Below are positions 2,178 through 47,666 of a DNA stretch of 53,937 bases, piece after piece. The stretch lies in contig JAJFGH010000074.1 in assembly GCA_021776275.1 (NCBI GenBank), forward strand, positions 1 to 53,937, written 5' to 3'. How positions within the stretch are numbered: the first letter of the stretch is position 1; the number at the start of each line of letters is the position of its first letter. Position numbers and translations under genes: made by a program. The notes beneath the pieces are model-generated. The model had not been told where the DNA came from. It was given only the letters and a program-made list of their open reading frames with translations, and did not search any database. Source of the stretch: Alphaproteobacteria bacterium (GTDB lineage: Bacteria > Pseudomonadota > Alphaproteobacteria > GCA-2746255).

Positions 2178-3262
2178 GCACGCCCGAACCGCCCTTGGCC
2201 TTACTTGCGGAGCTGACCCACCGTTGCCCCCTGCAATGCCCCTATTGCTCGAACCCATTGGCGCTTGAAGGCGTCGAGGGAGAGCTTGGCACGGAGGAAT
2301 GGTGCCGGATTCTGGATGAGGCGGCGGCGCTTGGCGCCTATCAGGTCCATTTTTCCGGAGGTGAACCTGCCCTTCGCAAGGATCTGCCCAAGCTTGTCCG
2401 CCATGCGAGCGCCGCCGGGCTTTATACAAATCTGATCACCTCCGGCATCCCCCTCAATGGGGAAAAAATCGACGCCCTCGCCGGGGCCGGTCTCGAACAT
2501 GTCCAGCTTAGCTTGCAAGATACGCTGCCTGAGGAAGCCGACCGGGTCGCCAAGATGCCAGGCGCCCATGCAAAGAAATTGGAAATTGCCCGGTGCGTTC
2601 GCGAGGCCGGTCTCGCGCTTACGATCAATTGCGTTTTCCACCGCCAAAATCTGGAGCGCCTCGACGCGATGATCGAGCTTGCCGTCGCGCTCGGCGCGGG
2701 GCGGCTGGAAATTGCCCATGTCCAATATTACGGCTGGGCCATCGAAAACCGTCAGGCCCTGCTGCCCAGCCGCGACCAGATCGAAAAGGCAAACGCCCTG
2801 ATCGCCGACGCCGAGGCGCGGCTAAAGGGCGTGCTGCTCTTCGATCATGTGCCGCCGGATTACTACGCCCGGCGGCCAAAGGCCTGCATGGGCGGATGGG
2901 GACGGCAATTTTTGAATATCAGCCCATCCGGCAAGGCCCTTCCCTGTCACGCCGCCGAAACCATCCCGGACCTTCGTTTCGACAATGTCCGCGAGCGCAG
3001 CCTGGCCGACATCTGGGTTGAATCGGACGCTTTCCGGCGCTTTCGCGGCACCGGCTGGATGCCGGAACCCTGCGGGTCCTGCGACAGGCGGGAAATCGAC
3101 TGGGGCGGCTGCCGGTGCCAGGCGCTGATGCTGACGGGCGATGCGGCGCAGGCGGACCCAGTCTGCGAGCTTTCCCCCGACCATGGCCGGATCCTTCAAA
3201 TGGTGAAAAACGAGGCCGGCCAGGAGGTCCCTCCCTTTCGCTATCGGCGGAAGGCAAACTAG
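2174..3262 (+). CDS. pqqE: PqqA peptide cyclase PqqE (radical SAM/SPASM)
   Basis: 362 aa with a CPLQCPYC radical SAM motif and C-terminal Cys clusters. ATGA overlap with pqqD. Confidence 0.95.
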
Positions 3263-3344
3263 GAACCGGTTGCAAGGCGCCCCTATCTTTTGGATACTGC
3301 GGGCGAATTTGCACAAGCCTTGTGGAACGCTCTGGAGAGAACAG

Positions 3345-3728
3345 ATGAGATCATCGAAGATTTTGGGCCTTGGCCTTGGACTCGCCCTTGCCCTAGCGCT
3401 GGCCAGCGGCTCGGCACTGGCAGGTGACGCAAAGAAAGGCGAAAAGGTTTTTAAGAAATGCAAAGCCTGTCACACGCTGGAAGCTGGCAAGCATAAGGTA
3501 GGTCCGTCTCTGGCCGGTATCTTTGGCCGGAAAGCCGGATCTTCGGAGGGCTTTAAATTTTCGAAAGCGATGCAAGAATCCGGCATTACGTGGAACGCGG
3601 AAACGCTGGATGCCTATCTTGCCAATCCGAAAGGCTACATTAAGGGCAACAAGATGGCCTTTCCGGGCGTGAAGAAAGAGGCCAAGCGCCAGAACCTAAT
3701 TTCTTATCTGGAAGAAGCGACGAAATAG
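3345..3728 (+). CDS. Class I c-type cytochrome (cytochrome c2/c550-like), secreted
   Basis: Start chosen at ATG 3345 after a GGAGAGA ribosome-binding site. Signal peptide [31 protein letters not shown] heme motif, and a distal Met in KMAFPG. Confidence 0.9.
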
Positions 3729-4762: not shown

Positions 4763-5884
4763 ATGCGTTCAAGTTTCGTGAAATCCCTTCTGTCGTCCGG
4801 AGCGATCCTTCCATGGGTGATCGGAGCCGGCGTCGTAACAACCGCCGCACTGATCACGCACAACCCAGCCAAGGCGGAAATGGTTCAAAAGCCATCCATC
4901 GCCTTCGAGCAGGTTGCGGAATCAACGGATGCGCCGGAGACATTCATGCGCGGGGGTCATGAGTACAACGTCGTTAAATCGACCTATGACGGAGAAGCCG
5001 CCCTGCAGAGCTTTATGAAGCTCAACAAAGGTCAGTACCGGTTCTATCCGGACCCGGTGGACAACCCCGGCACGTTCTACGCGCCGAAGGGCTGGCCCTT
5101 CAAGAGCGGCGAAGTCATCCCGAAGCTCCTCGTTACGGGGCAAGAGGTTCTCGAGGAAGGTTTTGCCGCGAAGTACATTCTTGGCGAAGACCATGCCAAG
5201 CGCGTACGCCCAGGCGAGCCATTCGACTATGACCTTTTCGTTCTTGCCGTAACGTCCCTTTTCGCAACCGGCCTTTATTGGGAAATCGTCGTTTCCCGCG
5301 AGGGCGATACGCTGGTCGTCAACGCGATTGAATCCCCGGTCGTTCGCGGGGAAGTGGTGGGCCGCGAGGACTTGATGTCGGCAGAAGAAAAAGCCGCGCT
5401 CGAAGCGAAAAACAAACTCAACATGAAAGAAGCAAACGCGCTTTACGAAGCCGTTCGCTTCAAGATGATCGAGGGTTGGGAAAAATCAAACAACGAGATC
5501 GTTTCCGAATATTCCGAGTGGAAGCGCTACAACGTCGTTCCCTTCCAGACCGGGGAATTTACCGGCGATCAATACATCAATCTTTATGCAAATGAAAAAG
5601 TCGAGAAATGGGAAAATTTTGATCAAATGCCGATTGGGACCGTTCTCGTGATCGATAGTTTCCATGGCGATGCGGATCGCATCGGTTTCGCCGCCAGATG
5701 GAAAGCCGGCGAGCTGGTTATCTTGCAGAAGATGAAAAATGGCTTCAACGCCGCGACCGGCGACTGGAAGATTACTAAAATCGACCACAAAGGAGTGGCC
5801 CAGGACATCACCGAAGAAAAGGGTGTACGGTCGACCTACCTTTTTGCCCTGCCGGATGAATACAAGAAGACGATCTATTTCTAG
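4763..5884 (+). CDS. Secreted or membrane-anchored protein with a C-terminal cytochrome-P460-fold-like domain lacking CxxCH
   Basis: 373 aa with an N-terminal hydrophobic segment. The C-terminal about 130 aa aligns by eye with the two P460-like paralogs (WKRYNVVPF..., DSF..., KMKNGFNAATGDWK...), but the heme motif is replaced by STYLFALPDEY. Confidence 0.75.
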   Translation: MRSSFVKSLLSSGAILPWVIGAGVVTTAALITHNPAKAEMVQKPSIAFEQVAESTDAPETFMRGGHEYNVVKSTYDGEAALQSFMKLNKGQYRFYPDPVDNPGTFYAPKGWPFKSGEVIPKLLVTGQEVLEEGFAAKYILGEDHAKRVRPGEPFDYDLFVLAVTSLFATGLYWEIVVSREGDTLVVNAIESPVVRGEVVGREDLMSAEEKAALEAKNKLNMKEANALYEAVRFKMIEGWEKSNNEIVSEYSEWKRYNVVPFQTGEFTGDQYINLYANEKVEKWENFDQMPIGTVLVIDSFHGDADRIGFAARWKAGELVILQKMKNGFNAATGDWKITKIDHKGVAQDITEEKGVRSTYLFALPDEYKKTIYF

Positions 5885-5926
5885 GTTCGTCTCCATATTC
5901 AACGGGTAGAATTCGTTGTGAGAAAT

Positions 5927-5955
5927 TGGGGGGCGCTTCGGCGCCCCCCTTTTTT
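5927..5955 (+). terminator. Rho-independent terminator
   Basis: GGGGGGCGC-TTCG-GCGCCCCCC hairpin followed by TTTTTT. Confidence 0.75.
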
Positions 5956-6100
5956 ATACGATTTTAATTTGCGCCCGGCGCACATTGACACCCTGCCCAG
6001 AGGGCCCTAACTATTACTTGTCGCAGGCCAAATCTGGCGGGCGCGGCGGTTTTTTTGGCGCTTGCGGATTCCCCACATGAATGGGGAAAGGAGGATTTCC

Positions 6101-6739
6101 ATGGCAATGGCGTCTCGGAGCTTTCTGAAATTTCCAGCCTTTATCGGTGCTGCCTTTCTGTTGGCCGCGGCGATCGGCGGCGAAGCCGTCTCGAAAGAGC
6201 CTTTGACCGACGAGGGGGCGGAAATGACCTACAACGCCCTTCGTGCAGCCATGGTCGAGAGCTATCGGGCCGGCGGCGATGACACTGCCGCCGTCTATAT
6301 GGGCTGGCAGCGTTTTAACCGTGTACCGTTTCTTTCCGGAACCCATGGTGGGCGCTACAGCAACATCTATGGCAACGCGAAAGCCAGCGCCTATGGCCTC
6401 TTTGAAAAGGGGAAACCCCTGCCGAAAGGCGCGGTCCTGGTAAGAGACAGCTTTATGGCAGCCAAAGCCTGCCTTACGGGCAACGTAGCGCTTGGCGATA
6501 AAACGCCGCCGGGCGTCTTTGCCTGTTTTGGGCCGCTATTCGTTATGGAAAAAATGGAAAAAGGCTTCAATCCGGAGAGCGGCGATTGGCAGTTCACGAT
6601 GATTTTTCCGGGTGGCACCGTCTTCGGCACGACAAAGGGACAGGGCGCGGAAAACGTCGACTTTTGCATGAATTGCCACGAAGCGGCCGAACCGGACGAT
6701 TTTATCTTCTACACCCCGGAAGAATATCGGCCCAATTAG
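6101..6739 (+). CDS. Cytochrome P460 family protein (mono-heme, periplasmic)
   Basis: Start at ATG 6101 after an AAGGAGGA ribosome-binding site. Signal peptide present. C-terminal FCMNCHEAAEPDDFIFYTPEEY (CxxCH near the C-terminus) and GFNPESGDWQF are typical of P460/c-prime-beta family proteins. Confidence 0.8.
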   Translation: MAMASRSFLKFPAFIGAAFLLAAAIGGEAVSKEPLTDEGAEMTYNALRAAMVESYRAGGDDTAAVYMGWQRFNRVPFLSGTHGGRYSNIYGNAKASAYGLFEKGKPLPKGAVLVRDSFMAAKACLTGNVALGDKTPPGVFACFGPLFVMEKMEKGFNPESGDWQFTMIFPGGTVFGTTKGQGAENVDFCMNCHEAAEPDDFIFYTPEEYRPN

Positions 6740-6761
6740 ATCGCCACGAACAATCCTTCAT

Positions 6762-6800
6762 AAAAAAAGGGTGGAACCTTCCGGTGCCACCCTTTTTTTG
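6762..6800. terminator. Bidirectional rho-independent terminator between convergent genes
   Basis: A-run, then GGGTGGAACC-TTCC-GGTGCCACCC hairpin, then T-run. Confidence 0.7.
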
Positions 6801-6812
6801 TGCAACGAGGCG

Positions 6813-8093
6813 CTACCACTTTGCCCGTTTTACAGCCTTCAGATTGATCTCCGTCGGCTGCATATCCGTATTGAACTTGATGTTCTCATCCGTCATCAAA
6901 ATGGTGGCGTGGCCGATCAGAAAATCATAAACGGCGGACCATGTCGGCCATAGAACCTTGCCGTCCGGATCGTCCTCGGTCGGAAAAACGCGATACCCCT
7001 GAATTGTCGTCTTCCAGAGTTGGCCTTTCGGCGTGAAATATTCGCCCAGATAAGGGGTCCAGAGTTCCGCATCGACGTAAACCACCTTGCGGCTGTAGGG
7101 ATGGCTCTCCGGCGTCATGCCTTCAACGACATAGACTTCCCTAGGCTCCCATTCTTCCACCGGGTTCCAATGGGGGCGCGTCTCCAAATCGAAAACGGGA
7201 AATTGTTCCTTCGGCGTACTGCCCCTCGGGTTCCAAAAGGGCTTGGTCACGTTCGCGATGACAAGAATTTTCTTTTTCGCGAGAACCTTGAAGCCGTCAT
7301 ACCAGGTCGGGTGCGCGCTCAAGATCATAATATCGTCGCTGAGAAAATCCGTCGAACCCAGCTTGTCCATCCAGAATCCGCCCGAAAAGCGGCGCACCTT
7401 GCGCGCCGCGACCGCGTAGGCCAACAGCCAGTCCGGATCGCCGTTCACATAGCGAATCAGGACCAGTCCGTTCCCCTTCATGTCCTGTGGAGCCGTCAGG
7501 ACGCTGAGCGTTTTCTCGAGAATTCTTTTATTTTCCGACCCCGCGCCATTGTCGCGGCGAAGCGCACCTCTTACGAAGGCCCGTTTGACAAACTGTTTCT
7601 GAACACGTTCGAGACCGGTTTTCTCGTTGAGAAGCGCGATCACCGTGTTCGGGTATTCCTGGTTGTCCCCCTGCTGTTTGCCGAGGAACATGTTCCACAT
7701 GACTTTTACGCCCGCCTTGGGATCGTCGGGATCGATCACCGGAAAAGGCGCGCCGGCGACCCACCCGTTTACCTGATTCGAGGCATCGTCCAGCGTGACG
7801 ACGTCGACGTTCTGATTCGTCGCCGCCACCCATTTCGGGTCCTTCGGATGAGGCTTGGCGTGGGCCAGCTTCATCGTCAGTCCCTTTTCGCGGATCTGCC
7901 ACTGAAAATGTTCGGGGATAAGGCTTTGGATGGTTTCCCCCTCGAAGGTTTTTTCGAGAAGCGCGCCTAAATTCTTGGCGCTGATGACCGTTCCTTCCGG
8001 CACTTCCTCGGCCATGGCCGAGGTTCCGAAAATCAAGCCGGTGGCCAGGACGGCCCAAACCCAAACGTCCCGCATCTTGGTCTTTCCCATCAT
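6813..8093 (-). CDS. DUF1329-like (LolA-fold, lipoprotein-sorting-like) periplasmic protein
   Basis: 426 aa with a signal peptide ending SAMA-EE. The family call comes from remembered overall sequence character, not from a search. Confidence 0.7.
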   Translation of the reverse strand: MMGKTKMRDVWVWAVLATGLIFGTSAMAEEVPEGTVISAKNLGALLEKTFEGETIQSLIPEHFQWQIREKGLTMKLAHAKPHPKDPKWVAATNQNVDVVTLDDASNQVNGWVAGAPFPVIDPDDPKAGVKVMWNMFLGKQQGDNQEYPNTVIALLNEKTGLERVQKQFVKRAFVRGALRRDNGAGSENKRILEKTLSVLTAPQDMKGNGLVLIRYVNGDPDWLLAYAVAARKVRRFSGGFWMDKLGSTDFLSDDIMILSAHPTWYDGFKVLAKKKILVIANVTKPFWNPRGSTPKEQFPVFDLETRPHWNPVEEWEPREVYVVEGMTPESHPYSRKVVYVDAELWTPYLGEYFTPKGQLWKTTIQGYRVFPTEDDPDGKVLWPTWSAVYDFLIGHATILMTDENIKFNTDMQPTEINLKAVKRAKW

Positions 8094-14152: not shown

Positions 14153-16339
14153 GTGTTACCTCGCATCCATTATGCGTCACCTCGCTGTCTTAAATTGCTC
14201 CTTGCGATGCTTGCCATCGCTTGTGCCACAATTTTTGTTTCCCGGTCAGCCTTGGCAGAAACCCGCTACGCCCTTTTGGTGGGCGTGAACGATTATGAAA
14301 GCCTACCGGCTTATCTGCAATTAAAAGGCCCGCGGAACGACGTGGAATTGGTTGCCGGCGTCCTTCAGGAAAATGGGTTTGAAGAATCCCACATCACCCT
14401 CCTGACGGACGGGCTGGAGGGCGCAAAAAAACCAACGCGCGCTGCTATTCTCTCCGAGCTTGGAAAGCTGGCCGCCAACGTTAAGAAAAAAGATTTTGTC
14501 TATCTCCATTTTTCCGGCCATGGCTCGCAACAGCCCATAAACCCTACGGCCAAAGGCACCGCCTGGGAGACGGACGGCCTTGATGAAATTTTTCTGCCAG
14601 GTGACATCGGCAAATGGGACAACGCCATCGGCAAGGTTGCGCGTTCGATCACGGATGACGAGCTGGGCGCTGCAATCACGAAAATTCGCAATCGCGGCGC
14701 TTTCGTTTGGGCGGTTTTCGATGCCTGCCACTCGGGAACCATGACGCGCGGCCTGCCCTCGGGTGAAGAAGCCATGCGTTTACGAAAAGTAGCGCCATCC
14801 AGCCTTGCCATTCCGGATTCGCTCTTCGAATCCGACATATCCTCTCTGCCGTCTTCGGCTAGGGAGGAAGGGCCAGGGTTTATGGAGGAAGCGGGTGGCT
14901 ACGTTGCCTTCTTTGCCGTGCAGACGACGGAAACGACACCGGAAATGCGCTTGCCGGCAGGCCATCCGGAACGCCGTTCCCAAGGTTTATTCACCTTCAC
15001 GGTGATGCAGGCGCTGGCCACGGACCCAGACGTGACCTATCGGCAACTTGGAGAGCGTGTGCTGCAGATTTATGCGTCCCAAAACCGCCGCAATCATACG
15101 CCCCTGTTCGAAGGAAGCGCACTGGACGCCCCGCTCTTCGGTAGCCGCCCGCAGCGCCAGGCGCGGCAATGGAAGGCCAAACGGAAAGACGATCTCCTCT
15201 ACATTGCCGCCGGCAGCCTTCATCAATTGGCGGAAGGGTCCATTTTCGCCATCGTAGCGAAGGCCAATTCGAGCCAGGACGCGGTTTTAGGCTATGTCCG
15301 CCTTGAAAAAGCGAACGTGTTGCAAAGCAGGCTTCTTCCCATTGCCCATCGGGGCGTCCCGGCCTTGGCATCAACGGACATCCCGGATCACGCTTATGCC
15401 CGTCTGGCATCCCAGCGCTTCACGCCCGGCATTCGAATAGCCAAGCCCCCTGCATCCACACCACCGTCACCGATAGACCGTGAAGTTGCATCGCTCCTCG
15501 ATGCGCTTGCCAAGGCATTGGGGAAAAAGGAGGACGGCATCGCCATCACGTGGGTTCCGCCGAACCAGATGGCGGATATCCGCTTGGCGATCGGAGAATC
15601 GCCGGACACCGCCGGCCCCGTTCTCTGGCTGTTGCCGCCGTCGAGCGAAATCGTAACGGAGGGTGCCGGCAAAACCCATTCCATCGCCCTGAACGCAGGC
15701 CGGGATGCCATCTACGAAAAGCTGGAGACAAGCTTTATGCGGATGGCCAAAATGTTCAACCTCTTGAAGCTTGCAAGCCAACTTTCCACAAGCCGGACCG
15801 CCAAAAAAATCGAGCTTTCGGCGAAAGTCACACGGGCGGGTACGGGAAAAACGGAACGCTATTTTCCTTCCGACATTCCCTATTTCCAGGCCAGCGATGT
15901 TGTCGAATTTGCAATCGCGAACCCAGGCCCCCTGCCTTTGGATCTGACCCTTCTGTTCGTCGATACCGATTTTGGCATCACGCCCCTTTTCCCCACCGAA
16001 GCGGGCGAAATCAACCGCATCGAAGCAGGGGGATTCTACACATTGCAAACCGAGGTAAATGCCGAGACGGTCGGCCTGGAACGCCTGATCGTAATCGCCG
16101 TCGAGGCCGAGGCGAACGCGCCGCTTGTTGAGTTCACTTTCCTTGCACAAGCGAGCCTTCCGCGCACGCGCGGGAGGAAGTCGAATGATTCCGCCACGCG
16201 TCCAAATGCCGAATTGGAAGCCATGTTCCGTCACGCGGGTTTCAACCCCCCACGAACGCGCGGACTGACTCCAGAGCGATCAACGTCGGAACGGGCCGGC
16301 ATGCGGATCTTCAGCTGGCAGACCTTGCCGCCGAAATAA
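14153..16339 (+). CDS. Secreted caspase-family (peptidase C14) protein with a C-terminal DUF4384-like domain
   Basis: Signal peptide, YALLVGVNDY, catalytic dyad contexts LHFSGHG and FDACHSG. The C-terminal segment ASDVVEFAIANPGPLPLDLTLLFVDTDFGITPLFP resembles DUF4384. Confidence 0.9.
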   Translation: MLPRIHYASPRCLKLLLAMLAIACATIFVSRSALAETRYALLVGVNDYESLPAYLQLKGPRNDVELVAGVLQENGFEESHITLLTDGLEGAKKPTRAAILSELGKLAANVKKKDFVYLHFSGHGSQQPINPTAKGTAWETDGLDEIFLPGDIGKWDNAIGKVARSITDDELGAAITKIRNRGAFVWAVFDACHSGTMTRGLPSGEEAMRLRKVAPSSLAIPDSLFESDISSLPSSAREEGPGFMEEAGGYVAFFAVQTTETTPEMRLPAGHPERRSQGLFTFTVMQALATDPDVTYRQLGERVLQIYASQNRRNHTPLFEGSALDAPLFGSRPQRQARQWKAKRKDDLLYIAAGSLHQLAEGSIFAIVAKANSSQDAVLGYVRLEKANVLQSRLLPIAHRGVPALASTDIPDHAYARLASQRFTPGIRIAKPPASTPPSPIDREVASLLDALAKALGKKEDGIAITWVPPNQMADIRLAIGESPDTAGPVLWLLPPSSEIVTEGAGKTHSIALNAGRDAIYEKLETSFMRMAKMFNLLKLASQLSTSRTAKKIELSAKVTRAGTGKTERYFPSDIPYFQASDVVEFAIANPGPLPLDLTLLFVDTDFGITPLFPTEAGEINRIEAGGFYTLQTEVNAETVGLERLIVIAVEAEANAPLVEFTFLAQASLPRTRGRKSNDSATRPNAELEAMFRHAGFNPPRTRGLTPERSTSERAGMRIFSWQTLPPK

Positions 16340-16356: not shown

Positions 16357-19239
16357 TTATTCCGCAGGCTTTAGAAGACTGGAAGGAAGAACGAGACGAA
16401 AGCCCGAAGGCACGGCCAACGGCCGTCGCGTCGTTGGGGTTTGTTTTCCGCCCGTTAATTCGAAGACCCGCTCGGACAGATAGACATCCAACATCGAGAC
16501 CGTGATGTAAGGCTTCTTTCGATAGGCGGCCTCTCCCCCAATGGCCTCCAGCAAGGCTTCCGTAAAGGCGCCGTTTCGCCAAACCTCGCTTTCCAATGAA
16601 AGCTGTTCGCTAGCCGAGGAAGCAAAAACCACAACGCCATATTCCGGGCTGGCAAGGTCGTTGACAACGCGGTTGACGTCTACGGGCGGACGATCCCCTC
16701 CCCAAACCCCGGCGGCATGGCAGGTATCGACGAAAAGGAACGTTCTGGCAGGAATGCTGGCCAGGGCGTCCCGGATTTTTTCATACGGCATCGCCGTTTC
16801 TTTCAAGCGTTCCGGATCCACTTTAGTCGGCAGGAAAAAATAATTTCCCTTTGCATCGTCAACGCCATGACCGGCAAAAAAGACGATGGCAACGTCGCCT
16901 GGCTGCGGCGCCGTTTGAATCCATTCGAGCCCTGCAAAAATATTTTCGAGAGATGCCTTATCATCCTGAAGAAGCTTAGTCTCTACGGAATGGTAAAGGC
17001 CTCCTTTTTGAAGCTTGGCGATCGCGGTGAAGTCGCGGGCATCCTGGTTCGCATAATTGAGCCGCAGCGCAGGATTTTCATAAGCACTTATCCCGACCGC
17101 CAATACGTAGAGCGTTGGCTTTCCGCCAGCCGCATTCCTGCCGGTCAAGGCGTAGGAAGCCGCTTCGCTATAGACGCCGTGACGATTCTTGGCGACAACC
17201 GAGATGCCCCTGGCATTTTTTGGAATTGTGACGTCAAGGCGATGCTGGGTGCCATCTGCCGTCGCCGCGATCTTTCCCTCGATGTCGGCGATCGGCCTGC
17301 CGTCCGCCATAATGCGGATTTCTGCCGCAGGCTCTCCGTTTGCCGAACGCAGGGAATAGCGAAGCGTAACCTGATCCGGGCCCGCCGCCTTCTCGGTGGC
17401 CTCGATCGAGATGACCGGAGGCAAGATCTCGGCAATGCCGCGTTGCCGTTGCTTGCGGCCGGCAGCGCGGTTGGCGGCGGCCAGCGCCTTGCCTTCGTCC
17501 AGAAAAGCCAGAACCTGGCCGACGACGTCCGGGCGGTAAAGGTCATCGCGAAAACGCGAGACGGAAAAGAAATCCGCGGCGTACCCCTTGCCCCGGTTCA
17601 CATGCCAACCGATGAGGTCGTCCCCGCCAGCGGAAGCCATGTAATAGCCCGAAGGCGTCCACGCCACCCACCGCTTGTCCCGGTGCGGGAAAAGGGCAAG
17701 CAGTTCTTCGCCATCGGCCACGCGATACCAACGGATGGTGCCATCCCCAAGGGCAAGAATGGCAAGCTTGCCGCTTTGCGCAACGTTGACGGCCCAGACC
17801 TGCTCGGGCGTTTGCACGTTCCAAATCTCTGCGCCCTTGCGGTCAAAATGGCGCAGGCGCCAACGGGTGCCCAACAGAAAGCTGTCGCCATCCGGCAGAA
17901 TGGCGAGGCTAAAGGCCCGTTCATGGCGCTTGAGGGGAAGCGGACGGCCCTGAAGGGTCGGCTCGCGGGAATCCCGCCAGTTTTCAATGACGAGCCCCTC
18001 GCCCTCGGTGACCGGCGGCAAGAAGCCATCTCCAGCCGCGGGCGGATCGCGCGTCAAAGCGCGCGCGGCAATCGAAAAACGCGCCGGCGACTGCCCCCAA
18101 CGATCAAAGCCGAAAAAAACGGTGCCGCCATCGGGGGAAACGAGAAACCGGTCGTCCAGATTTTGAAACTTCGCGATCGACGTCGTTTGCGTAAAAACCC
18201 TTCGGAAAGAAGAGTCGAAAGCGCCAAAGGCCGGGTCGTCACTTGCATAAAAAACGCCACCGTCTTTCCGCGCAAGCAGGTGCATCACCATATCTTGCGA
18301 AGCCGCTCTCTCAAGGCGCCGGCCTTTCCCGCTTTTGTCCCAGCGAAGAAGAAGCTTGCGACCGCCTTTCTCATATTTACCGGCGGCGAAAAGAAAACGG
18401 CCATCCAGAGACCAGGCAACCCGAGCTAAATTTCCCTTCTCGATGCCATTTATATCGGGCGTAAAAAGAAGCGCGAGATCGCGCGCGGAGAACACCTCTA
18501 CAAGCGGCTCATCATACCCCACGGCGATTTTCTCTCCATCCGGCGAAAAGCTCGCCATGACGGGGATTCGCGCCGGCAAGGACGGCGTCTTTGCGATCCG
18601 GCGAAAGGACGCATCGTAAAGCCGGACATGACCATCCAGAGAAGCCGTGACCAATCGGCCATCCTGGGCGAACTCGGCCGAAAGCGTATCGTCCTCGTAA
18701 TCCTTGTCTTCGGCGACAAGCCGAAAATCCTTTGCGTCATAGATTCGAAGGCCATGCTCCGACTTGAAAGTGACCGCCAGATAGTTGCCGTCTTGCGAAA
18801 AAGCCAAATGCAGGGGCCGAAGCGGCAAGTCGCCGATTCGACGGATCATCTGACCGGAAGCCGTCTCAAAGAGATAAAGGCTCCAGTCCTCGCCCCAGCC
18901 ACCGGTCCAACCACCCGCGACGATACGCTTGCCATCGGGAGAAACGGCCAGCGCATAGAGGGCGCCCTCCTTGCCGGCATCAATGGGCATGCGGATGACC
19001 CGGATCAGCTCGCCTTTCGGCAGCGCCCAAACCCGGATGGTCTTGTCATAAGAGGACGTAACGAGGATGCGGTTGGCGGCGTCCACGCCAAAGCGATTGA
19101 TCGAGGCCGTGTGGGTACCCGCCTCGATCCGGAGAATGGGGCTTTCCGGCGGAGCGGTACCTGCCGCTACAGCTTGACGCGCGCTGGAACCCATCGCCAA
19201 AAGGGCGCAAAAAACGCTTATAAAAGTAATGAATCTCAC
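16357..19239 (-). CDS. Secreted WD40-repeat protein with a C-terminal caspase (peptidase C14) domain
   Basis: 960 aa with a signal peptide. Multiple WD-like blades (SSYDKTIRVWAL, SLDGHVRLYD, LGDGTIRWYRV). C-terminal LYVLAVGISAYEN, FFAGHG and FVDTCHAAG. Confidence 0.9.
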   Translation of the reverse strand: MRFITFISVFCALLAMGSSARQAVAAGTAPPESPILRIEAGTHTASINRFGVDAANRILVTSSYDKTIRVWALPKGELIRVIRMPIDAGKEGALYALAVSPDGKRIVAGGWTGGWGEDWSLYLFETASGQMIRRIGDLPLRPLHLAFSQDGNYLAVTFKSEHGLRIYDAKDFRLVAEDKDYEDDTLSAEFAQDGRLVTASLDGHVRLYDASFRRIAKTPSLPARIPVMASFSPDGEKIAVGYDEPLVEVFSARDLALLFTPDINGIEKGNLARVAWSLDGRFLFAAGKYEKGGRKLLLRWDKSGKGRRLERAASQDMVMHLLARKDGGVFYASDDPAFGAFDSSFRRVFTQTTSIAKFQNLDDRFLVSPDGGTVFFGFDRWGQSPARFSIAARALTRDPPAAGDGFLPPVTEGEGLVIENWRDSREPTLQGRPLPLKRHERAFSLAILPDGDSFLLGTRWRLRHFDRKGAEIWNVQTPEQVWAVNVAQSGKLAILALGDGTIRWYRVADGEELLALFPHRDKRWVAWTPSGYYMASAGGDDLIGWHVNRGKGYAADFFSVSRFRDDLYRPDVVGQVLAFLDEGKALAAANRAAGRKQRQRGIAEILPPVISIEATEKAAGPDQVTLRYSLRSANGEPAAEIRIMADGRPIADIEGKIAATADGTQHRLDVTIPKNARGISVVAKNRHGVYSEAASYALTGRNAAGGKPTLYVLAVGISAYENPALRLNYANQDARDFTAIAKLQKGGLYHSVETKLLQDDKASLENIFAGLEWIQTAPQPGDVAIVFFAGHGVDDAKGNYFFLPTKVDPERLKETAMPYEKIRDALASIPARTFLFVDTCHAAGVWGGDRPPVDVNRVVNDLASPEYGVVVFASSASEQLSLESEVWRNGAFTEALLEAIGGEAAYRKKPYITVSMLDVYLSERVFELTGGKQTPTTRRPLAVPSGFRLVLPSSLLKPAE

Positions 19240-20267: not shown

Positions 20268-20492
20268 ATGAGACAAATGACAGCGCGCCTACCTTTTAGA
20301 AAACGAACCATTCAGAAAGCTTCCCGCTGGACATTGGCGCTGGTGAGCGCCTTCGGCCTTGGCGCGATTTCCACGCCGCCCGCCATGGCCGCCGAAAGTG
20401 AAAAACCAATCGGCCCGATCGCATCCGATGCCGGGGCAGAAATGTTGGCTCAAACCAGCTGCGGCTGCGCCGTGACCGGGGTGCGGGGGTAA
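20268..20492 (+). CDS. Candidate RiPP precursor peptide A1 (signal-peptide-like leader, core ...EMLAQTSCGCAVTGVRG)
   Basis: 71-74 aa (ATG 20268 or 20277). Paralog of A2. Differences between the copies are concentrated at synonymous third positions in this frame. Located immediately upstream of the radical SAM gene. Confidence 0.65.
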   Translation: MRQMTARLPFRKRTIQKASRWTLALVSAFGLGAISTPPAMAAESEKPIGPIASDAGAEMLAQTSCGCAVTGVRG

Positions 20493-20505: not shown

Positions 20506-20709
20506 TTGCCATTGAGAAAACGCACGATCCGAAAAGCCGCCCATTGGGCCCTGGCGTTGATGGGCGCCTTTGGCCTTGGCGCTTCTCCCACATCCACCAT
20601 GGCCGCCAAGGCGGAAAGCTCCCCCTTGCCGACAGCCCCCGATGCCGAGGCGGAAATGCTGGCCCAGAATTGTTGCAGCACCACCACCGTGACCGGAGTG
20701 CGGGGTTAG
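20506..20709 (+). CDS. Candidate RiPP precursor peptide A2 (core ...EMLAQNCCSTTTVTGVRG)
   Basis: TTG start 7 nt after an AAGGAG ribosome-binding site. 67 aa. Shares the RKRTI-K...W-LAL--AFGLGA N-region and the EMLAQ...VTGVRG C-terminus with A1. Confidence 0.65.
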   Translation: MPLRKRTIRKAAHWALALMGAFGLGASPTSTMAAKAESSPLPTAPDAEAEMLAQNCCSTTTVTGVRG

Positions 20710-20742: not shown

Positions 20743-22512
20743 TTGCGAATTCTTCGTATCCTCCCTCCCGGTCGCTTTCCGACGGTCGTCCACGACCCAG
20801 GCCGTTGGCTGGACCGTCTCGCCACGGATCCCGGCATCGAGGTCCTCTCCTACAGCTTGAACCATGCCTGGTGGCGTGTCCTCTGTTCGCCCGCCGTCTG
20901 GAAGGCCGTGCTCGCCCCCCTCTCCGCGACCCAGCGCCTGCGCAGACGTCTCGAATGGTCGGCCGCGGATTTTGAAGCAAAGGCAGGCACCAAAGCCGCC
21001 GCCGAGGCGCTTGCGAATTTCTACCGGCCGGAAACCTATGCCAATCGGGAAGCCTATTTTACGGCCGTCATGGCCCTTGCCAGGCACGTGGAGGCCTTAA
21101 ACGGCGCGCAAGATGAATTGACGTTTTCCCTACAGCATGGGGTCCTAGCGCATGGGCTGAATTATCGGGCAAGCGCGGAACTGGTCCGGTACGCAAACCG
21201 TGACACGCTGCTTGCGCGTTCGATGGTGGCGGCCCTCGAAGACTGTCCGGAAGCGGTGGATCTGCTTTGCCTCTCCGCCAACTCACCGTTTGATTTTCTG
21301 ACGGCGCTTATCGCCGCCCGCCTTCTTCGCGAGCGCCATCCGCGTCTTCACATATGTCTCACCGATCATGGTTATGAGAATTTCTCCCTGCAGCCGCATC
21401 TCGATCGCCTCCGCCAAGCCGGTACGCTGGACACGATTTTCGACACGGTGATCGAATCGCGGGACGAGCGGGACGTCATTTTGCCGGCGCTAGCCCAGCG
21501 GATAGCGGCCCAAAAACCCATCCGCGGTTTCTTGCGGAAAACCGAATTCCCAGAAGCTCCAGCGGCTTCCTCCGCACAAGCCTTGCCCGCCCCTCTTGTG
21601 CCGACCTTCTCAAGCGAACCGGTGCTGTGGACGCGCATTAGCCAACGGCGCTGTTATTGGAGCCGCTGCACGTTCTGCACGCAAAATTCAAAATATGATG
21701 ACCCGCGGGTGCCTACGAAGTCCGAAATTGCCGGCGCTTTGGATCGCATTCAGGCACAAATCACCGCCGGTTATCGGAACCTGCATTTCTCGGACGAAGC
21801 CGTATCGCCGGCGCTTCTCCGCCTTTTCAGCGAAGGCATCCTGGAGCGTGGCCTTTCTTTTCGCTGGGGATGCCGGTGCAAGCTTGACCCCTCGCAGACG
21901 CCCGAGCTGTTTCGTCTTGCCCGCGAGGCGGGGTGCTACGAAATCATCTTCGGGCTTGAGAGCATCTCGCCGCGCGTTCAAAAATTGATGGACAAGCATG
22001 TGGAGGGATTGGATCAAGAGCGGATTGCCGAAATTTTTGGCGCCGTCCACGGGGCGGGGATTGCCCTTTTCATCAATTTGATCGCCGGCTTCCCAGGTGA
22101 TACGCCCGAGGAAACGACGGCATCCGTGGCGTTCCTGATCGACACGTGTCAAAATTTCGAAAACACAACCTATGTTTTGAACCCCTTCGGGCTTTTCCCC
22201 GCGACGCCGATCATGGACAACCCCGCCGCCTTCGGCGTTGTTCCCATTGAGGCGGCAGGCGATATGGTGTCGGCCTATGGCTACGATCTGGACCCAAAAA
22301 TCCGCGACGCCACCTTGGCAGCCGCCGCGGCCATGCCCGAGATGAAAGCGCGCCTGAACGCCGCGTTTGGCTGGGATCGGCTGGGCCTTGGCGCAACCCT
22401 TGAGACGGTGCAGGCGCTTTATTTCGAAATGGGTCATGGCGCCCTTTTCAAGGCCATGCCCCATAACCCATTGGCAAATTTTGCCGGAAGACCCGATCGG
22501 CGCGCCTCATGA
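20743..22512 (+). CDS. Radical SAM protein with an N-terminal B12-binding-like domain and atypical CX4CX2C cluster motif
   Basis: 589 aa. RRCYWSRCTFCTQ at nt 21652-21678 (Cys304, Cys309, Cys312). The downstream region (GCYEIIFGLES, INLIAGFPGDT) is typical of class-B-like radical SAM cores. No C-terminal Cys-rich SPASM/twitch region. Confidence 0.88.
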   Translation: MRILRILPPGRFPTVVHDPGRWLDRLATDPGIEVLSYSLNHAWWRVLCSPAVWKAVLAPLSATQRLRRRLEWSAADFEAKAGTKAAAEALANFYRPETYANREAYFTAVMALARHVEALNGAQDELTFSLQHGVLAHGLNYRASAELVRYANRDTLLARSMVAALEDCPEAVDLLCLSANSPFDFLTALIAARLLRERHPRLHICLTDHGYENFSLQPHLDRLRQAGTLDTIFDTVIESRDERDVILPALAQRIAAQKPIRGFLRKTEFPEAPAASSAQALPAPLVPTFSSEPVLWTRISQRRCYWSRCTFCTQNSKYDDPRVPTKSEIAGALDRIQAQITAGYRNLHFSDEAVSPALLRLFSEGILERGLSFRWGCRCKLDPSQTPELFRLAREAGCYEIIFGLESISPRVQKLMDKHVEGLDQERIAEIFGAVHGAGIALFINLIAGFPGDTPEETTASVAFLIDTCQNFENTTYVLNPFGLFPATPIMDNPAAFGVVPIEAAGDMVSAYGYDLDPKIRDATLAAAAAMPEMKARLNAAFGWDRLGLGATLETVQALYFEMGHGALFKAMPHNPLANFAGRPDRRAS

Positions 22513-23414: not shown

Positions 23415-23442
23415 AAAGGCCCGCGCAAAGCGCGGGCCCTTT
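23415..23442. terminator. Strong bidirectional rho-independent terminator
   Basis: AAAAGGCCCGCGC-AAA-GCGCGGGCCCTTT. Separates the SDR gene (+) from cspA (-). Confidence 0.85.
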
Positions 23443-23466: not shown

Positions 23467-23676
23467 TTAGTCGGCGAGCTTCAAATTGCCGGCAAAGGTT
23501 TTACCATTCTGCCCGCTCTCAAGCTCATACTCGACCTGCTGACCTTCATTGAGGCCCGGCAGTCCAGCACGCTCGACCGCTGAAACATGGACGAAGACAT
23601 CCTTCGATCCATCTTCTGGCGTAATAAACCCATATCCTTTGACAGGGTTGAACCATTTCACGGTTCCAGTACTCAT
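23467..23676 (-). CDS. cspA: Cold-shock protein (CspA family)
   Basis: [34 protein letters not shown]... contains the RNP1/RNP2 motifs. Start at 23676 after an AAGAAGGAA ribosome-binding site. Confidence 0.95.
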
Positions 23677-23884
23677 TTGACTTATTCCTTCTTTAATTGT
23701 CATAGCCGCCCGCACGTTACGCGTAGGCGCGTCCTCGTTAAAAAATTCCTGGGGTATAGCAGCTAGGTCGGCTTGACAAAGCAGGATACGTCCGGGTCTT
23801 CGAAGACGAAGAGGATGATATAGGGCGAAGGCCACAAAATTTCAAAGAATTTGTAAAAACCCCTTGTAAATCAGGGGGGATAGG

Positions 23885-24199: not shown

Positions 24200-24847
24200 T
24201 TGGATACGAACGTCCCATATATGCCGTCGGTGACCAACCTCCAGAAAATCTTGGACGCAATCCAAAAGGCTGGCGTTCCTGAAGTTTTTAATCTCGACTT
24301 TTTGAAGGACTTAGGATTTACGAGTTCCAATGATCGACCAGTAATCAAGGTCTTGAAATATCTCGGTATGCTAGACCCTTCAGGGCACCCGCAGACTGCT
24401 TACCGTGAGTTTGTTGACCATACTAAGGCAAAGGGAGTGCTCGCAGGGCGCATACGCGCCGCCTTCGACGACCTTTACCTCAGCGACAAGGATGCTCACA
24501 ACAAATCTGCAGAACAGCTTAAAGGCTGGTTCAAAACCAAAACAGGTGCAAGTGATTCTGTCGCGAAAAAGATGGCAACGCAGTTCAAATCACTTGCAGC
24601 CTACGCTGATTTCACAGCCGCCCTGGATGCTGAACCCAAAACCCCAGAGGCGGAGCCTGAAAAGAAAGATAAAATTGAGCCAGAAAAAAACGATAAGGAG
24701 AAGCCAACGGATTTACCGCCGCCTCCCATATCTGACATGAAGGGTTTGGGCTTTGTTTATCGGCTGGAAATTCATCTTCCTGACACGCAGAATGTGGAAA
24801 CGTTTCGCGCGATTTTCCGTGCTCTGCGAGAAGAGCTCATGCCGTGA
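24200..24847 (+). CDS. DUF5343-like protein
   Basis: TTG start after an AAGGAGGA ribosome-binding site. The N-terminal VPYMPSVTNLQKILDAIQKAGVPEVFNLDFLKDLGFTSSNDRPVIKVLKYLGMLD pattern matches my recollection of DUF5343. Acidic/Lys-rich linker. Confidence 0.65.
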   Translation: MDTNVPYMPSVTNLQKILDAIQKAGVPEVFNLDFLKDLGFTSSNDRPVIKVLKYLGMLDPSGHPQTAYREFVDHTKAKGVLAGRIRAAFDDLYLSDKDAHNKSAEQLKGWFKTKTGASDSVAKKMATQFKSLAAYADFTAALDAEPKTPEAEPEKKDKIEPEKNDKEKPTDLPPPPISDMKGLGFVYRLEIHLPDTQNVETFRAIFRALREELMP

Positions 24848-25419
24848 AATCACAGATAAACGATTTTGTCTTCACCGGGGTCCTGGCTTCACACTGCATC
24901 CGTGACCTGCAAGCTAAAGGTCTCCTCCGAACGCCAGCGGTAACACCTGACGAACGGCGCGAACAAGATTTGTTCGCACCGGTCCCGGAAAGTATCCGCG
25001 GCGGCTCCATTCAGATGCAGCGCTGGTATCGAATGCTATTTGTATTTGAGAATCTCGTGCGAGACTTCATTATTACTCGCTTAAAGGAACTAGACGGAGA
25101 AGGTTGGTTTGAAAAACGTGCATCAAGCCAGATGAAGAAAAAAGTCGAGGATCGGGAGAAGAATGAGGAAAAAAATCAATGGCATATCGGTAGAAATAAG
25201 CAGCCTATTTTCTATCTGGATTTCGGCGACCTTGGGCTCCTTATCACCAACCACTGGAACGTTTTCAACGATTTCTTCGATAATCAAGCTTGGGTCATTA
25301 GCCGCATTCAGGATGCAGAGCGGACGAGAAATGTTATCGCGCACACGAATCTCCTGTCCTCTGAAGAAGGAGAACGTCTCGAAATGTATTTACGAGACTT
25401 CTTAAGGCAGATCGGTTGA
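24844..25419 (+). CDS. Swt1-like HEPN domain protein (putative RNase)
   Basis: GTGA overlap with the upstream gene. Rx4H motif RNVIAH at nt 25327-25344, with an upstream helix FENLVRDFI typical of HEPN. Confidence 0.7.
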   Translation: MKSQINDFVFTGVLASHCIRDLQAKGLLRTPAVTPDERREQDLFAPVPESIRGGSIQMQRWYRMLFVFENLVRDFIITRLKELDGEGWFEKRASSQMKKKVEDREKNEEKNQWHIGRNKQPIFYLDFGDLGLLITNHWNVFNDFFDNQAWVISRIQDAERTRNVIAHTNLLSSEEGERLEMYLRDFLRQIG

Positions 25420-46716: not shown

Positions 46717-46842
46717 TGGGCCTTCCACGCGTTCGTCCGGTCGGCACTTTAGCGCCTGGGTCCGGCCAAGGCCAGCGCTCCCGCGCGCGAAAATCCCCCC
46801 GGCCAACCTTTCCACCGCGCCCCGAAGTGCCTATATTAGAGG

Positions 46843-47150
46843 GGTCGGTTTTCCGGCTATGGCAATAAACGTTAAGTGAAATAGACGGTGCGGACCCGGG
46901 GGCAGTACCCGGCGCCTCCACCAAATTTACCTGCCCAATCGTCTTGGACGATGGGCGCTTTGGGGGCGAACTAGGATCGACGCACGTGATAAAGGCTTAA
47001 TTTTTGCTCGGTATGATACCACCGTTATCGGGTCGTTTTATAAGTGCCAATGACAACAATCGTTATGCACTCGCTGCTTAAGCATTAAGCAAGCGCGGTC
47101 CGGGGGGCACCGGGCAACAGAAGCCCCCCACCTGCCACCTGCGAAGCCGG
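46843..47150 (+). ncRNA. ssrA: Circularly permuted (two-piece) tmRNA gene ssrA; outer boundaries approximate
   Basis: The acceptor piece ends CCGGG-GGCAGTA-CCCGG-CGCCTCC-A-CCA at 46923. The coding piece starts GGGGGCGAACTAGGATCGACG at 46962. GGGGGCG/CGCCTCC form an acceptor stem with a G3.U70 pair. The tag ORF GCC AAT GAC AAC AAT CGT TAT GCA CTC GCT GCT TAA (47046-47081) encodes ANDNNRYALAA. Confidence 0.8.
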
Positions 47151-47159
47151 TATGGAACG

Positions 47160-47666
47160 ATGAGCGAAATGGATTACGACAAGCTGTTTGAAGATGCGCT
47201 GCGCAGCGTTGTGCAAACGGTTCTGACGCGCGTCATCAAAGAGGGCCTCCTTGGAGACCACCATTTTTATATTTCCTTCCAAACCAACCACGCCGGCGTT
47301 TCCATTCCGGACAGCCTGCGGGCCCGTTATCCGGACGAAATGACGATTGTCCTGCAAAATCAGTTTTGGGATTTGAAAGTGACGGACGAGCTGTTCGAAG
47401 TCACGCTCAGCTTCAACGACATGCAGGAACAAGTGGTCGTGCCTTTTAAGGCGATTACCAGCTTTGTCGATCCTTCCGTGCGCTTTGGCCTGCAATTTCG
47501 CGGCGGCAAAGAATCGGAAGGTGGCGCCATCCTTCCACAAGAAGGGATACCCCAGCCACGGCCCGAAACGGCCACCAAGGACAAGGGCGGCAAGGCCACA
47601 TCGGATCAAACCGAAGACGATACAACGGCGGAAGTCATCCCCCTCGATACCTTTCGCAAAAAATAG
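47160..47666 (+). CDS. sspB: ClpXP adaptor SspB (alphaproteobacterial type)
   Basis: 168 aa. DYDKLFEDALRSVV..., HHFYISFQT and VVVPFKAITSFVDPSV are typical of alpha-type SspB. Acidic C-terminal tail ending in a ClpX-binding-like LDTFRKK. Confidence 0.85.
   Translation: MSEMDYDKLFEDALRSVVQTVLTRVIKEGLLGDHHFYISFQTNHAGVSIPDSLRARYPDEMTIVLQNQFWDLKVTDELFEVTLSFNDMQEQVVVPFKAITSFVDPSVRFGLQFRGGKESEGGAILPQEGIPQPRPETATKDKGGKATSDQTEDDTTAEVIPLDTFRKK

Follow-up and report, generated by a model that had tools for sequence, protein, structure and literature searches.

The subject of this report is a radical S-adenosylmethionine (SAM) enzyme encoded on a 53,937-nucleotide stretch of DNA from an alphaproteobacterium (GenBank assembly GCA_021776275.1, contig JAJFGH010000074.1, positions 1 to 53,937), which is referred to here as the window. 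The gene for this enzyme lies in an operon with the genes for a secreted protein, two small precursor-like proteins (A1 and A2), and an extended short-chain dehydrogenase/reductase (SDR) (Table 1). Comparison with related loci showed that two features define the system, an invariant G-[VI]-R-G tail at the C terminus of the exported neighbors of the enzyme and the cotranscribed, sometimes fused SDR.

Organization of the operon

The genes of the operon, in the order secreted protein, A1, A2, radical SAM enzyme, and SDR, are separated by 18, 13, 33, and −4 nt. A G-rich stretch is found upstream of the start of A1, while A2 has an AAGGAG ribosome-binding site 7 nt before its TTG start. The N termini of both proteins are basic and then hydrophobic and lead to an A-x-A site (...PPAMA before AE in A1; ...TSTMA before AK in A2). 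Neither A1 nor A2 matched a Pfam family at an E value of 0.01 or lower. The secreted protein that opens the operon had no Pfam or NCBIfam match, and its homologs adjoin a tail-bearing peptide in the loci L013 and L027 only. Since it recurs in just three loci, it was rejected as a core component and is an accessory at most.

Table 1. Positions of the features described in the text, given in the coordinates of the window unless a locus (L number) is named
Feature	Position	Strand	Remarks
Secreted protein, 249 aa	19500-20249	+	Opens the operon; 18 nt between its end and A1; possible accessory
Precursor A1, 74 aa	20268-20492	+	Likely true start ATG at 20277; signal-peptide-like ...AFGLGAISTPPAMA before AE; tail ...SCGCAVTGVRG
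A1 tail, A-V-T-G-V-R-G	20469-20489	+	Proposed recognition and modification site
Precursor A2, 67 aa	20506-20709	+	Paralog of A1; signal-peptide-like N terminus; tail ...CCSTTTVTGVRG
A2 tail, T-V-T-G-V-R-G	20686-20706	+	From the tail consensus
Radical SAM enzyme, 589 aa	20743-22512	+	TTG start; from the translation, PF04055, and homolog alignment
N-terminal Rossmann, B12-binding-like domain, ~270 aa	20743-21552	+	From AlphaFold2 secondary structure and hhalign
Family motif D208-H-G-Y-E-N-F-S-L216	21364-21390	+	Lies where the wider clade has GG after Rossmann strand 4
CX4CX2C motif, C304-YWSR-C309-TF-C312 (context RRC-YWSR-C-TF-C)	21652-21678	+	Putative ligands of the SAM-cleaving [4Fe-4S] cluster
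D351-E352	21793-21798	+	Equivalent of the GGE SAM-binding motif; invariant in the family; aligns with OxsB D362-E363
Extended SDR, 301 aa	22509-23414	+	Start overlaps the stop of the radical SAM gene (ATGA)
Intrinsic-terminator-like hairpin	23418-23438	+	End of the operon; 9 G-C pairs, then a T-rich tail
Polytopic membrane carriers	L005:4265-5971, L009:4447-5994, L016:4543-5997, L026:7807-9318(-), L029:4350-5993		
L034 (Nostoc sp. T09)	5228-5509 and 5641-7320		HSYENFSL in place of DHGYENFSL

A conserved C-terminal tail beside the radical SAM gene

The window was compared with a set of orthologous genome loci, designated by L numbers, and with a distant-relative set, L034 to L079 (46 loci at 24 to 35% identity). 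An open reading frame (ORF) ending in A-V-x-G-[VI]-[RK]-G-stop was found beside the radical SAM gene in 27 of 37 related loci from more than eight phyla, a count that takes in variant tails (AVRG and GIKG) and four extra loci. Such ORFs were present in Proteobacteria, Acidobacteriota, Chloroflexota, Planctomycetota, Elusimicrobiota, Bacillota, Vampirovibrionales, and Binatota. The strict form, G[VI]RG-stop, occurred 26 times in 427 kb of family loci, nearly always on the strand of the radical SAM gene and beside either that gene or the SDR gene. It occurred twice in the 53.9-kb window, in A1 and A2 only, and four times in 524 kb of distant-relative loci, in each case within L034, L044, or L058, all of which have a related radical SAM enzyme.

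Alignment of 35 tails gave the consensus P-x-A-V-x-G-[V/I]-[R/K]-G, in which the final Gly was present in all 35 sequences, preceded by Arg in 34 and Lys in 1, and before that by Val in 28 and Ile in 7, with Gly at position −4 in 32. Everything upstream of the tail was variable in these sequences and contained Cys pairs, polyproline, or neither. The only feature common to the neighboring substrate candidates across phyla was the terminal A-V-x-G-[VI]-[RK]-G-COOH.

The proteins that carry the tail were of several kinds. Small carriers with a signal peptide included those of Binataceae (...TAVGGVRG), of the locus of the closest homolog (...TSVAGVRG), and of Bradyrhizobium-like metagenome-assembled genomes (MAGs) (...SSPPPPPPPAVGAVRG). 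Three copies of the tail peptide were found in an Elusimicrobiota locus, two in a Planctomycetia locus, and four, ending in ...CGVRG or ...GIRG, in a Vampirovibrionales locus. The cassette was also present in two cultured organisms, Shimia litoralis CL-ES2, an isolate in which the tail reads ...CCAAMGVRG, and Paenibacillus athensensis, in which it ends a 121-residue protein (...TAIMGVRG). In Ktedonobacterales, Chloroflexia, and Terriglobia, the carriers were polytopic membrane proteins of 480 to 570 residues (Table 1) for which no Pfam or NCBIfam family was found. Their last hydrophobic segment is signal-peptide-like (...VYA followed by DNC...) and is followed by a tail of 60 to 100 residues ending in A-[VI]-[AS]-G-V-R-G, and this layout reads as that of a "precursor" attached to a membrane domain. 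In the clade in which the SDR is fused to the radical SAM enzyme, the neighbor was a protein of 150 to 170 residues, both copies of which end in ...GGVMGIKG; the 151-residue copy in L081 is without a signal peptide.

In one locus, the carrier was an RHS-repeat protein of 1,090 residues (PF05593, 66.9 bits; L083:555-3827, on ENA contig_11367, the locus of P0110), encoded directly upstream of a family radical SAM gene and an SDR fragment. Its C-terminal segment of about 85 residues follows a DPDGL motif and ends in ...CTPTAILGVRG, so the GVRG-tailed peptide may be the payload of the RHS shell. Distant radical SAM enzymes (about 27% identity) in L034, L044, and L058 had neighbors ending in ...VMGIRG, ...VMGVRG, and ...AIGGVRG, indicating that the association of tail and enzyme reaches beyond the core family. 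A further pair of paralogous proteins of about 200 residues was observed upstream of the family radical SAM gene in L003 (2359-2961 and 2997-3626), and in the one that was scanned, 2997-3626, a bacterial SH3 domain was detected. The two proteins end in ...AMTSGSNG and ...AMTSGANG, which may be a variant of the tail with Asn for Arg and the final Gly retained.

In these 27 loci, therefore, the arrangement was that of a cluster for a ribosomally synthesized and posttranslationally modified peptide (RiPP), in that a putative precursor adjoins the enzyme, is often multicopy, and combines a variable core with an invariant tail. Multicopy hypervariable peptides were seen in L002, L014, L020, and the window. 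A RiPP recognition element (RRE), which is not obligatory for RiPPs, was not found by the Pfam scan, in which PF04055 was the only domain in the enzyme. Distant relatives of about 700 residues (L037, L041, L046, and L065) have a C-terminal extension that is PqqD-like by eye, and the family to which the enzyme belongs is without it.

The radical SAM enzyme and its cluster motif

The PF04055 match covers residues 302 to 462 and scored 40.1 bits (cutoff, 29.5); no SPASM domain was detected in the same scan of the 589-residue protein. With this score above the gathering threshold and the invariant three-Cys motif described below, the protein falls within the radical SAM superfamily. No obvious Shine-Dalgarno sequence precedes the TTG start, which is backed by the N termini of homologs (MxIxxLxPPGRFPTVV), as these align with the start of the enzyme.

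A search space of 5.8 billion proteins yielded 141 homologs, mostly with 98% query coverage and 40 to 52% identity, and almost all of them are named only "B12-binding domain-containing radical SAM protein." By profile search of 1.84 billion representatives, about 65 full-length family members (representatives at 50% identity) were recovered, and the wider clade at an E value of 1e−30 or lower comprised 1,359 proteins. The family alignment, made from 31 homologs of 38 to 51% identity, had 46 invariant columns. Pfam and NCBIfam (release of June 2026) hold no model for this family, which is a distinct one, class-B-like in having a Rossmann N-domain and a radical SAM barrel.

The enzyme contains 11 Cys residues, at positions 48, 168, 176, 205, 304, 309, 312, 377, 379, 398, and 469. 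An earlier reading of the window, made from the sequence only, had pointed to C304, C309, and C312 as the single Cys triad of the core, with four residues between the first two, and both the position and the spacing were reproduced from the translation. The possibility that a canonical CX3CX2C had been misregistered was checked and was ruled out by the alignment of the 31 homologs and by alignment with OxsB. C304, Y305, W306, C309, and C312 were invariant (31/31), and among the orthologous loci, C-Y-W-x-x-C-x-[FY]-C was kept wherever the region was present (32 of 32). When the family profile was compared with OxsB, the triad matched the segment sRGCDYSRCTFCPRDHK residue for residue.

The same reading had called the spacing noncanonical, and any implication of novelty did not survive comparison. 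CX4CX2C was found in place of CX3CX2C in every family member and is a documented variant compatible with membership in the superfamily. According to a review (PMC9204698), it is the cluster-binding motif seen in the crystal structure of OxsB; a Cx4Cx2C motif was also reported for GenD1 (PMC4340712), and a CX4CX2C megacluster is present in RadicalSAM.org (PMC9477430). GCYWxxCxFC was likewise found in 44 of the 46 distant-relative loci. On these alignments, the spacing is best taken as a trait of the clade, neither an error nor a novelty. D351-E352 takes the place of the GGE motif, which in OxsB is Ala361-Asp362-Glu363, with E363 contacting cobalamin (PMC9204698). Judged by these residues, the radical SAM core is intact and conserved.

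The absence of a C-terminal Cys cluster of the SPASM or twitch type, as previously proposed, was borne out. After C312 there are just C377, C379, C398, and C469, all within the barrel; no Cys lies past residue 469, and neither a CxxC-type cluster nor a SPASM match in Pfam was found in the enzyme. Two of these residues, C377 (21871-21873) and C398 (21934-21936), are on barrel strands and are invariant in the family. C377 aligned with a Cys of AprD4 (WWC), and C398 is kept across the wider clade (AGC); they could be H-atom donors or purely structural. An auxiliary cluster in the N-domain, such as occurs in the fold matches MiaB and RimO, was considered and rejected, since the family alignment has no conserved N-terminal Cys triad.

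The N-terminal domain and cobalamin

An AlphaFold2 model was built on the 31-sequence alignment (pLDDT, 91.4; pTM, 0.92). In this model, strands at residues 2 to 7 and 33 to 38 come first, and a helical insertion at about 39 to 167, with helices at 39 to 122, then separates strand 2 from strand 3; the Rossmann strand-helix units resume at 174 to 178, 203 to 208, 235 to 237, and 262 to 264, and the barrel begins at about 294. The segment LLCLSANSPFDFLTALIAARLLRERHPRLHICLTDHG, which had been quoted as evidence of a B12-binding-type domain, corresponds to residues 174 to 210. The proposal of a B12-binding-like N-domain split by a helical insertion is thus supported at the level of the predicted fold, by the layout of the model and by Foldseek matches.

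The Foldseek matches in the PDB were MiaB, MgmA, OxsB, AprD4, TokK, TsrM, and CysS (E values of 4e−10 to 1e−6; TM-scores of 0.35 to 0.55), all of which consist of a Rossmann-like N-domain and a radical SAM barrel. OxsB, TokK, and TsrM were matched with a probability of 1.00 and E values of 6e−9 to 3e−8 over 430 to 536 columns, as is expected of the two-domain class B fold, and the matches to AprD4, MgmA, and CysS were likewise long (430 to 530 columns). Sequence matches to the PDB were weak, with E values of 2e−8 for AprD4, 9e−5 for TsrM, 1e−4 for MgmA, and 3e−3 for OxsB. When the family was compared by hhalign with seven distant relatives of the CYW clade (alignment A2, not to be confused with precursor A2), the match had a probability of 100% and an E value of 2.4e−53 over 517 columns and took in the helical insertion as well as strand 1 and the Rossmann core. 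Because this match covers the whole layout of the N-domain, the interrupted B12-binding-like domain is the standard architecture of the clade.

The DxHxxG cobalamin ligand motif is absent, in agreement with the earlier reading, and the comparison with PF02310 that had been suggested gave no match in the enzyme at an E value of 1 or lower, so that a class B domain was not detectable by this model. In the distant relative L035, PF02310 scored weakly (23.9 bits against a cutoff of 32.1). By hhalign, the family motif DHGYENFSL falls at the position that G217-G218 occupy, without exception, in alignment A2. Among the 31 homologs, E212, N213, and L216 of this motif are invariant, and conservation is 90% or higher at D208, H209, G210, and F214. 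The replacement of the GG of the clade by DHG disfavors cobalamin binding, whereas the alignment of E352 with the cobalamin-contacting E363 of OxsB favors it. The sequence evidence on cobalamin use therefore points both ways, with PF02310 not detected and GG replaced on one side and D351-E352 kept on the other.

Relation to named radical SAM families

Scans against NCBIfam gave no score above a cutoff, the best being those for the PhpK family (TIGR04479, 65 against 600 bits), ApyD (NF050148, 64.3 against 750 bits), and TIGR03975 (29.6 against 281.85 bits). Membership in any of the three was rejected, as the scores are far below the curated cutoffs. In 9 of 10 distant relatives that were scanned, the best models were also TIGR03975, PhpK, and ApyD, and all were subthreshold. 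The enzyme had been described as TIGR03975-like, and this description held in part. By hhalign to alignment A2 it is a relative of that clade of peptide and protein maturases, and by its score it is not a member of TIGR03975. The accompanying suggestion of an association with NHLP/Nif11 precursors was not supported, as A1, A2, and three orthologous precursors matched no NCBIfam model at an E value of 1 or lower beyond chance level.

The TIGR03975 (PoyC-type), ApyD, and PhpK models thus mark the nearest named families, and their relatives in alignment A2 share the interrupted N-domain and GCYWxxCxFC. TIGR03975 and ApyD are RiPP maturases by their NCBIfam names. Unlike these families, the one described here has lost the GG, is without an RRE, and has an SDR partner, and in contrast to TIGR03975 systems, its precursors are signal-peptide proteins that would be recognized through the C-terminal tail and not through an NHLP/Nif11 region.

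OxsB of oxetanocin A biosynthesis (PDB 5UL2 to 5UL4) resembles the enzyme in its motif (CDYSRCTFC compared with CYWSRCTFC), in the D-E equivalent of GGE, and in the combination of Rossmann N-domain and barrel. It is a nonmethylating, cobalamin-binding class B enzyme of 744 residues that works on a nucleotide together with OxsA. Its sequence similarity to the enzyme is very weak (E value of 3e−3, 19 bits; TM-score of about 0.4 to 0.46), and the enzyme further differs from OxsB in that its genomic context is one of peptides or proteins, in that an SDR accompanies it, and in that DHGYENFSL stands where GG would be.

In the AprD4/AprD3 pair of apramycin C3'-deoxygenation, AprD4 is a radical SAM enzyme with a B12-like N-domain and is paired with an NAD(P)H-dependent reductase. 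AprD4 (PDB 6FD2) was the best sequence match in the PDB (E value of 2e−8) and one of the top fold matches, and the two-enzyme logic of the pair, in which a substrate is oxidized or dehydrated and then reduced, is the logic proposed below for the radical SAM enzyme and the SDR. The differences are that AprD4 acts on an aminoglycoside diol, whereas the tail has no hydroxyl groups, and that the match is limited to barrel residues 328 to 468.

Targeting of a C terminus has a parallel in mycofactocin biosynthesis, where MftC modifies the extreme C terminus of the precursor MftA (...GVY tail); MftC differs in being a SPASM enzyme that needs the RRE protein MftB. Radical SAM enzymes of the anSME type modify sulfatases before Sec export. 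The bufferins are described as RiPPs with Sec signal peptides (PMC11626156). Both systems resemble the proposed one in that Sec-signal substrates are modified in the cytoplasm before export, but anSMEs are SPASM enzymes and bufferins are made by MNIO enzymes. In none of the MftC, anSME, and bufferin systems is a G-V-R-G tail or a comparable SDR partner known.

The SDR and the accessory genes

The SDR matched PF01370 (NAD-dependent epimerase/dehydratase) with 69 bits and, in database comparison, had no close relative among SDRs with a solved structure or a name. Its residues G8xxG11xxG14, S102, and Y126xxxK130 were at least 90% conserved among 21 orthologs, and by these residues it is predicted to be catalytically intact. 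The SDR gene adjoins the radical SAM gene in about 27 of the 37 loci and is directly downstream in at least 21. In P0095, P0097, P0098, P0101, P0103, P0116, P0118, and L022, the SDR is fused to the C terminus of the radical SAM enzyme.

A subclade from alphaproteobacterial MAGs (L007, L012, L015, L017, L021, and L031) has polyproline tail peptides (...SSPPPPPPPAVGAVRG), and the SDR was found in L007 alone. Accessory genes in this subclade encode a 2-oxoglutarate-Fe(II) oxygenase resembling prolyl 4-hydroxylase (PF13640), a DUF6065 protein (PF19541, 331 bits), and an FkbM methyltransferase. By homology, the first suggests proline hydroxylation of the polyproline core, and the accessory genes are as expected for a peptide-tailoring cluster.

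Other genes in the window

Two genes for caspase-domain (Peptidase_C14) proteins directly precede the operon, at 14153-16339 (+) and 16357-19239 (−). The product of the latter has 960 residues, with a signal-peptide-like N terminus, WD40 beta-propellers, and the C14 domain. A link to the radical SAM enzyme was considered, as metacaspase-like peptidases cut after Arg. It was rejected because no homolog was found in 33 related loci, and the adjacency is probably coincidental. Downstream of the operon, an overlapping pair (24200-24847 and 24844-25419, +) encodes a DUF5343 protein (137 bits) and a Swt1-like HEPN protein (48 bits) and looks like a defense or toxin-type module. Converging on the operon terminator is a gene for a cold-shock domain protein (23467-23835, −); the ORF as listed has an N-terminal extension of 54 residues, and the true start is probably an internal Met. 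A permuted two-piece tmRNA with the tag peptide ANDNNRYALAA was found by ARAGORN at 46831-47172 (+); permuted tmRNAs are typical of Alphaproteobacteria and so give a hint of where the window comes from.

Discussion

We consider it probable, on the strength of the comparisons above, that the radical SAM enzyme is one component of a cassette that tailors the extreme C terminus of exported peptides and proteins, in other words that it is a tail-directed maturase. In this model, the tail would be both the recognition element and the site of modification. The free C-terminal tail would dock in the active site of the enzyme in the cytoplasm, before Sec export, and the [4Fe-4S]+ cluster held by C304, C309, and C312 would cleave SAM. 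The resulting 5'-deoxyadenosyl radical would then take a hydrogen from within the last three residues, the best candidates being the tertiary C-beta hydrogen of Val or Ile at position −3 and the C-alpha hydrogen of the terminal Gly. Net oxidation, either by desaturation of Val or Ile at −3 or by oxidative decarboxylation of the terminal Gly to an enamide or N-acyl-imine, would give a product whose C=C or C=N bond would be reduced by the SDR with NAD(P)H. Export of the modified product and removal of its signal peptide would follow.

The order of oxidation and then reduction was preferred because the tail (A, V, G, V/I, R/K, G) offers the SDR no hydroxyl or carbonyl unless the radical SAM enzyme makes one. 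As a choice of chemistry within the tail-directed model, it is a reasoned guess with somewhat less than an even chance of being right. Methylation of the tail, within the same model, is possible and distinctly less favored. Chemistry on the guanidine group is disfavored because Lys or Asn replaces Arg in some tails.

Several observations weigh against the tail-directed model or against the chemistry proposed within it. The nearest characterized hidden Markov models (HMMs) are those of methyltransferases, which favors methylation over oxidation. No tail ORF was found in 10 of the 37 loci, some of which are truncated contigs, and the variant tail in L003 reads ...SG[SA]NG. The SDR is missing from about 10 loci, including most of the polyproline alphaproteobacterial clade, and is therefore not obligatory. 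The signal peptides were judged by eye and with a hydrophobic-stretch heuristic, and an exact look-up in the public protein collection found neither A1 nor A2 as a gene called at these coordinates.

The strongest competing explanation is that the enzyme is a B12-dependent C-methyltransferase, in which methyl-cobalamin bound in the N-domain would serve to methylate the tail at an sp3 carbon, for instance C-beta of Val or a carbon in the Arg side chain, with the SDR acting elsewhere or at another step. Its appeal lies in the best NCBIfam models, PhpK (65 bits), ApyD (64 bits), and TIGR03975 (30 bits), and in the homology of the whole architecture, N-domain included, to that clade by hhalign. The alignment of E352 with the cobalamin-contacting E363 of OxsB, the Foldseek matches to TokK, TsrM, CysS, and MgmA, and the conserved beta-branched residue at −3 all fit it as well, as does the precedent of PoyC, which methylates Val at C-beta. 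Nevertheless, the HMM scores lie 5- to 12-fold under the curated cutoffs, PF02310 is not matched, and the GG of the clade is replaced by DHGYENFSL. Moreover, a methylated aliphatic side chain would leave the coevolving, sometimes fused SDR without a target, and the best sequence match in the PDB, AprD4, has a B12-like domain and is not known to use cobalamin. On balance, we regard this explanation as unlikely.

That the radical SAM enzyme and the SDR instead form an AprD4/AprD3-like pair, in which a radical dehydratase or dehydrogenase and a reductase act on a small molecule (a sugar, lipid, or cofactor) while the GVRG ORFs serve as carriers, in sorting, or in regulation or are there by chance, seems quite improbable. 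AprD4 was indeed the best PDB sequence match and one of the top fold matches, the SDR belongs to the family of sugar-nucleotide epimerases and dehydratases, the enzyme has no RRE, unlike L037, L041, L046, and L065 with their PqqD-like extensions (by eye), and one locus has a weak glycosyltransferase-like neighbor. However, the tail ORF stays with the radical SAM gene across phyla while all but its last four to seven residues change, multicopy hypervariable peptides of the kind usual among RiPP precursors occur in L002, L014, L020, and the window, and clustering of the neighborhoods gave no conserved sugar or lipid genes. A degenerate, noncatalytic homolog or a miscalled ORF, which the TTG start without an obvious Shine-Dalgarno sequence and the single Pfam domain might suggest, can be set aside as extremely improbable given that the Cys triad, the D-E motif, and 46 columns are invariant in 31 sequences, that the same motif binds the cluster in OxsB, that the AlphaFold2 model is confident, and that the N terminus aligns with those of homologs.

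Returning to the tail-directed maturase, the variety of carriers raises a bolder and rather doubtful idea, namely, that GVRG at the terminus works as a portable tag that marks a protein for radical modification and has been grafted onto unrelated exported carriers (peptides, membrane proteins, and an RHS payload), with a reaction that has no characterized precedent and is carried out by one radical SAM enzyme, in most cases together with an SDR. Possible chemistries for such a tag are oxidative decarboxylation of Gly with reduction of the imine and desaturation with stereoinversion of Val or Ile at −3. If this were so, the modified tail would be a functional warhead or anchoring handle, and the enzyme would not be another RiPP methyltransferase.

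The cassette of GVRG-tailed protein, radical SAM enzyme, and SDR was not found to be described in the full-text literature, a search whose coverage mostly excludes subscription journals, and there is no Pfam or NCBIfam model (June 2026) for the tail peptides, the membrane carriers, or the cassette. What appears new is this cassette of many phyla, while the Cys spacing itself was already known and is ordinary for the class-B-like branch of radical SAM enzymes. The cassette, which is compact and spread over many phyla, is probably a system of radical-SAM-modified ribosomal peptides and proteins, and it is directly testable, as the substrates are short and the predicted mass change is confined to their last residues. 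If the tail-directed model is correct, it would represent a RiPP-like class whose enzyme recognizes a free C-terminal tail and not a leader or RRE, it would probably bring a new reaction pair of radical SAM enzyme and SDR, and it would extend radical SAM modification to Sec-exported substrates, even large membrane and RHS proteins.

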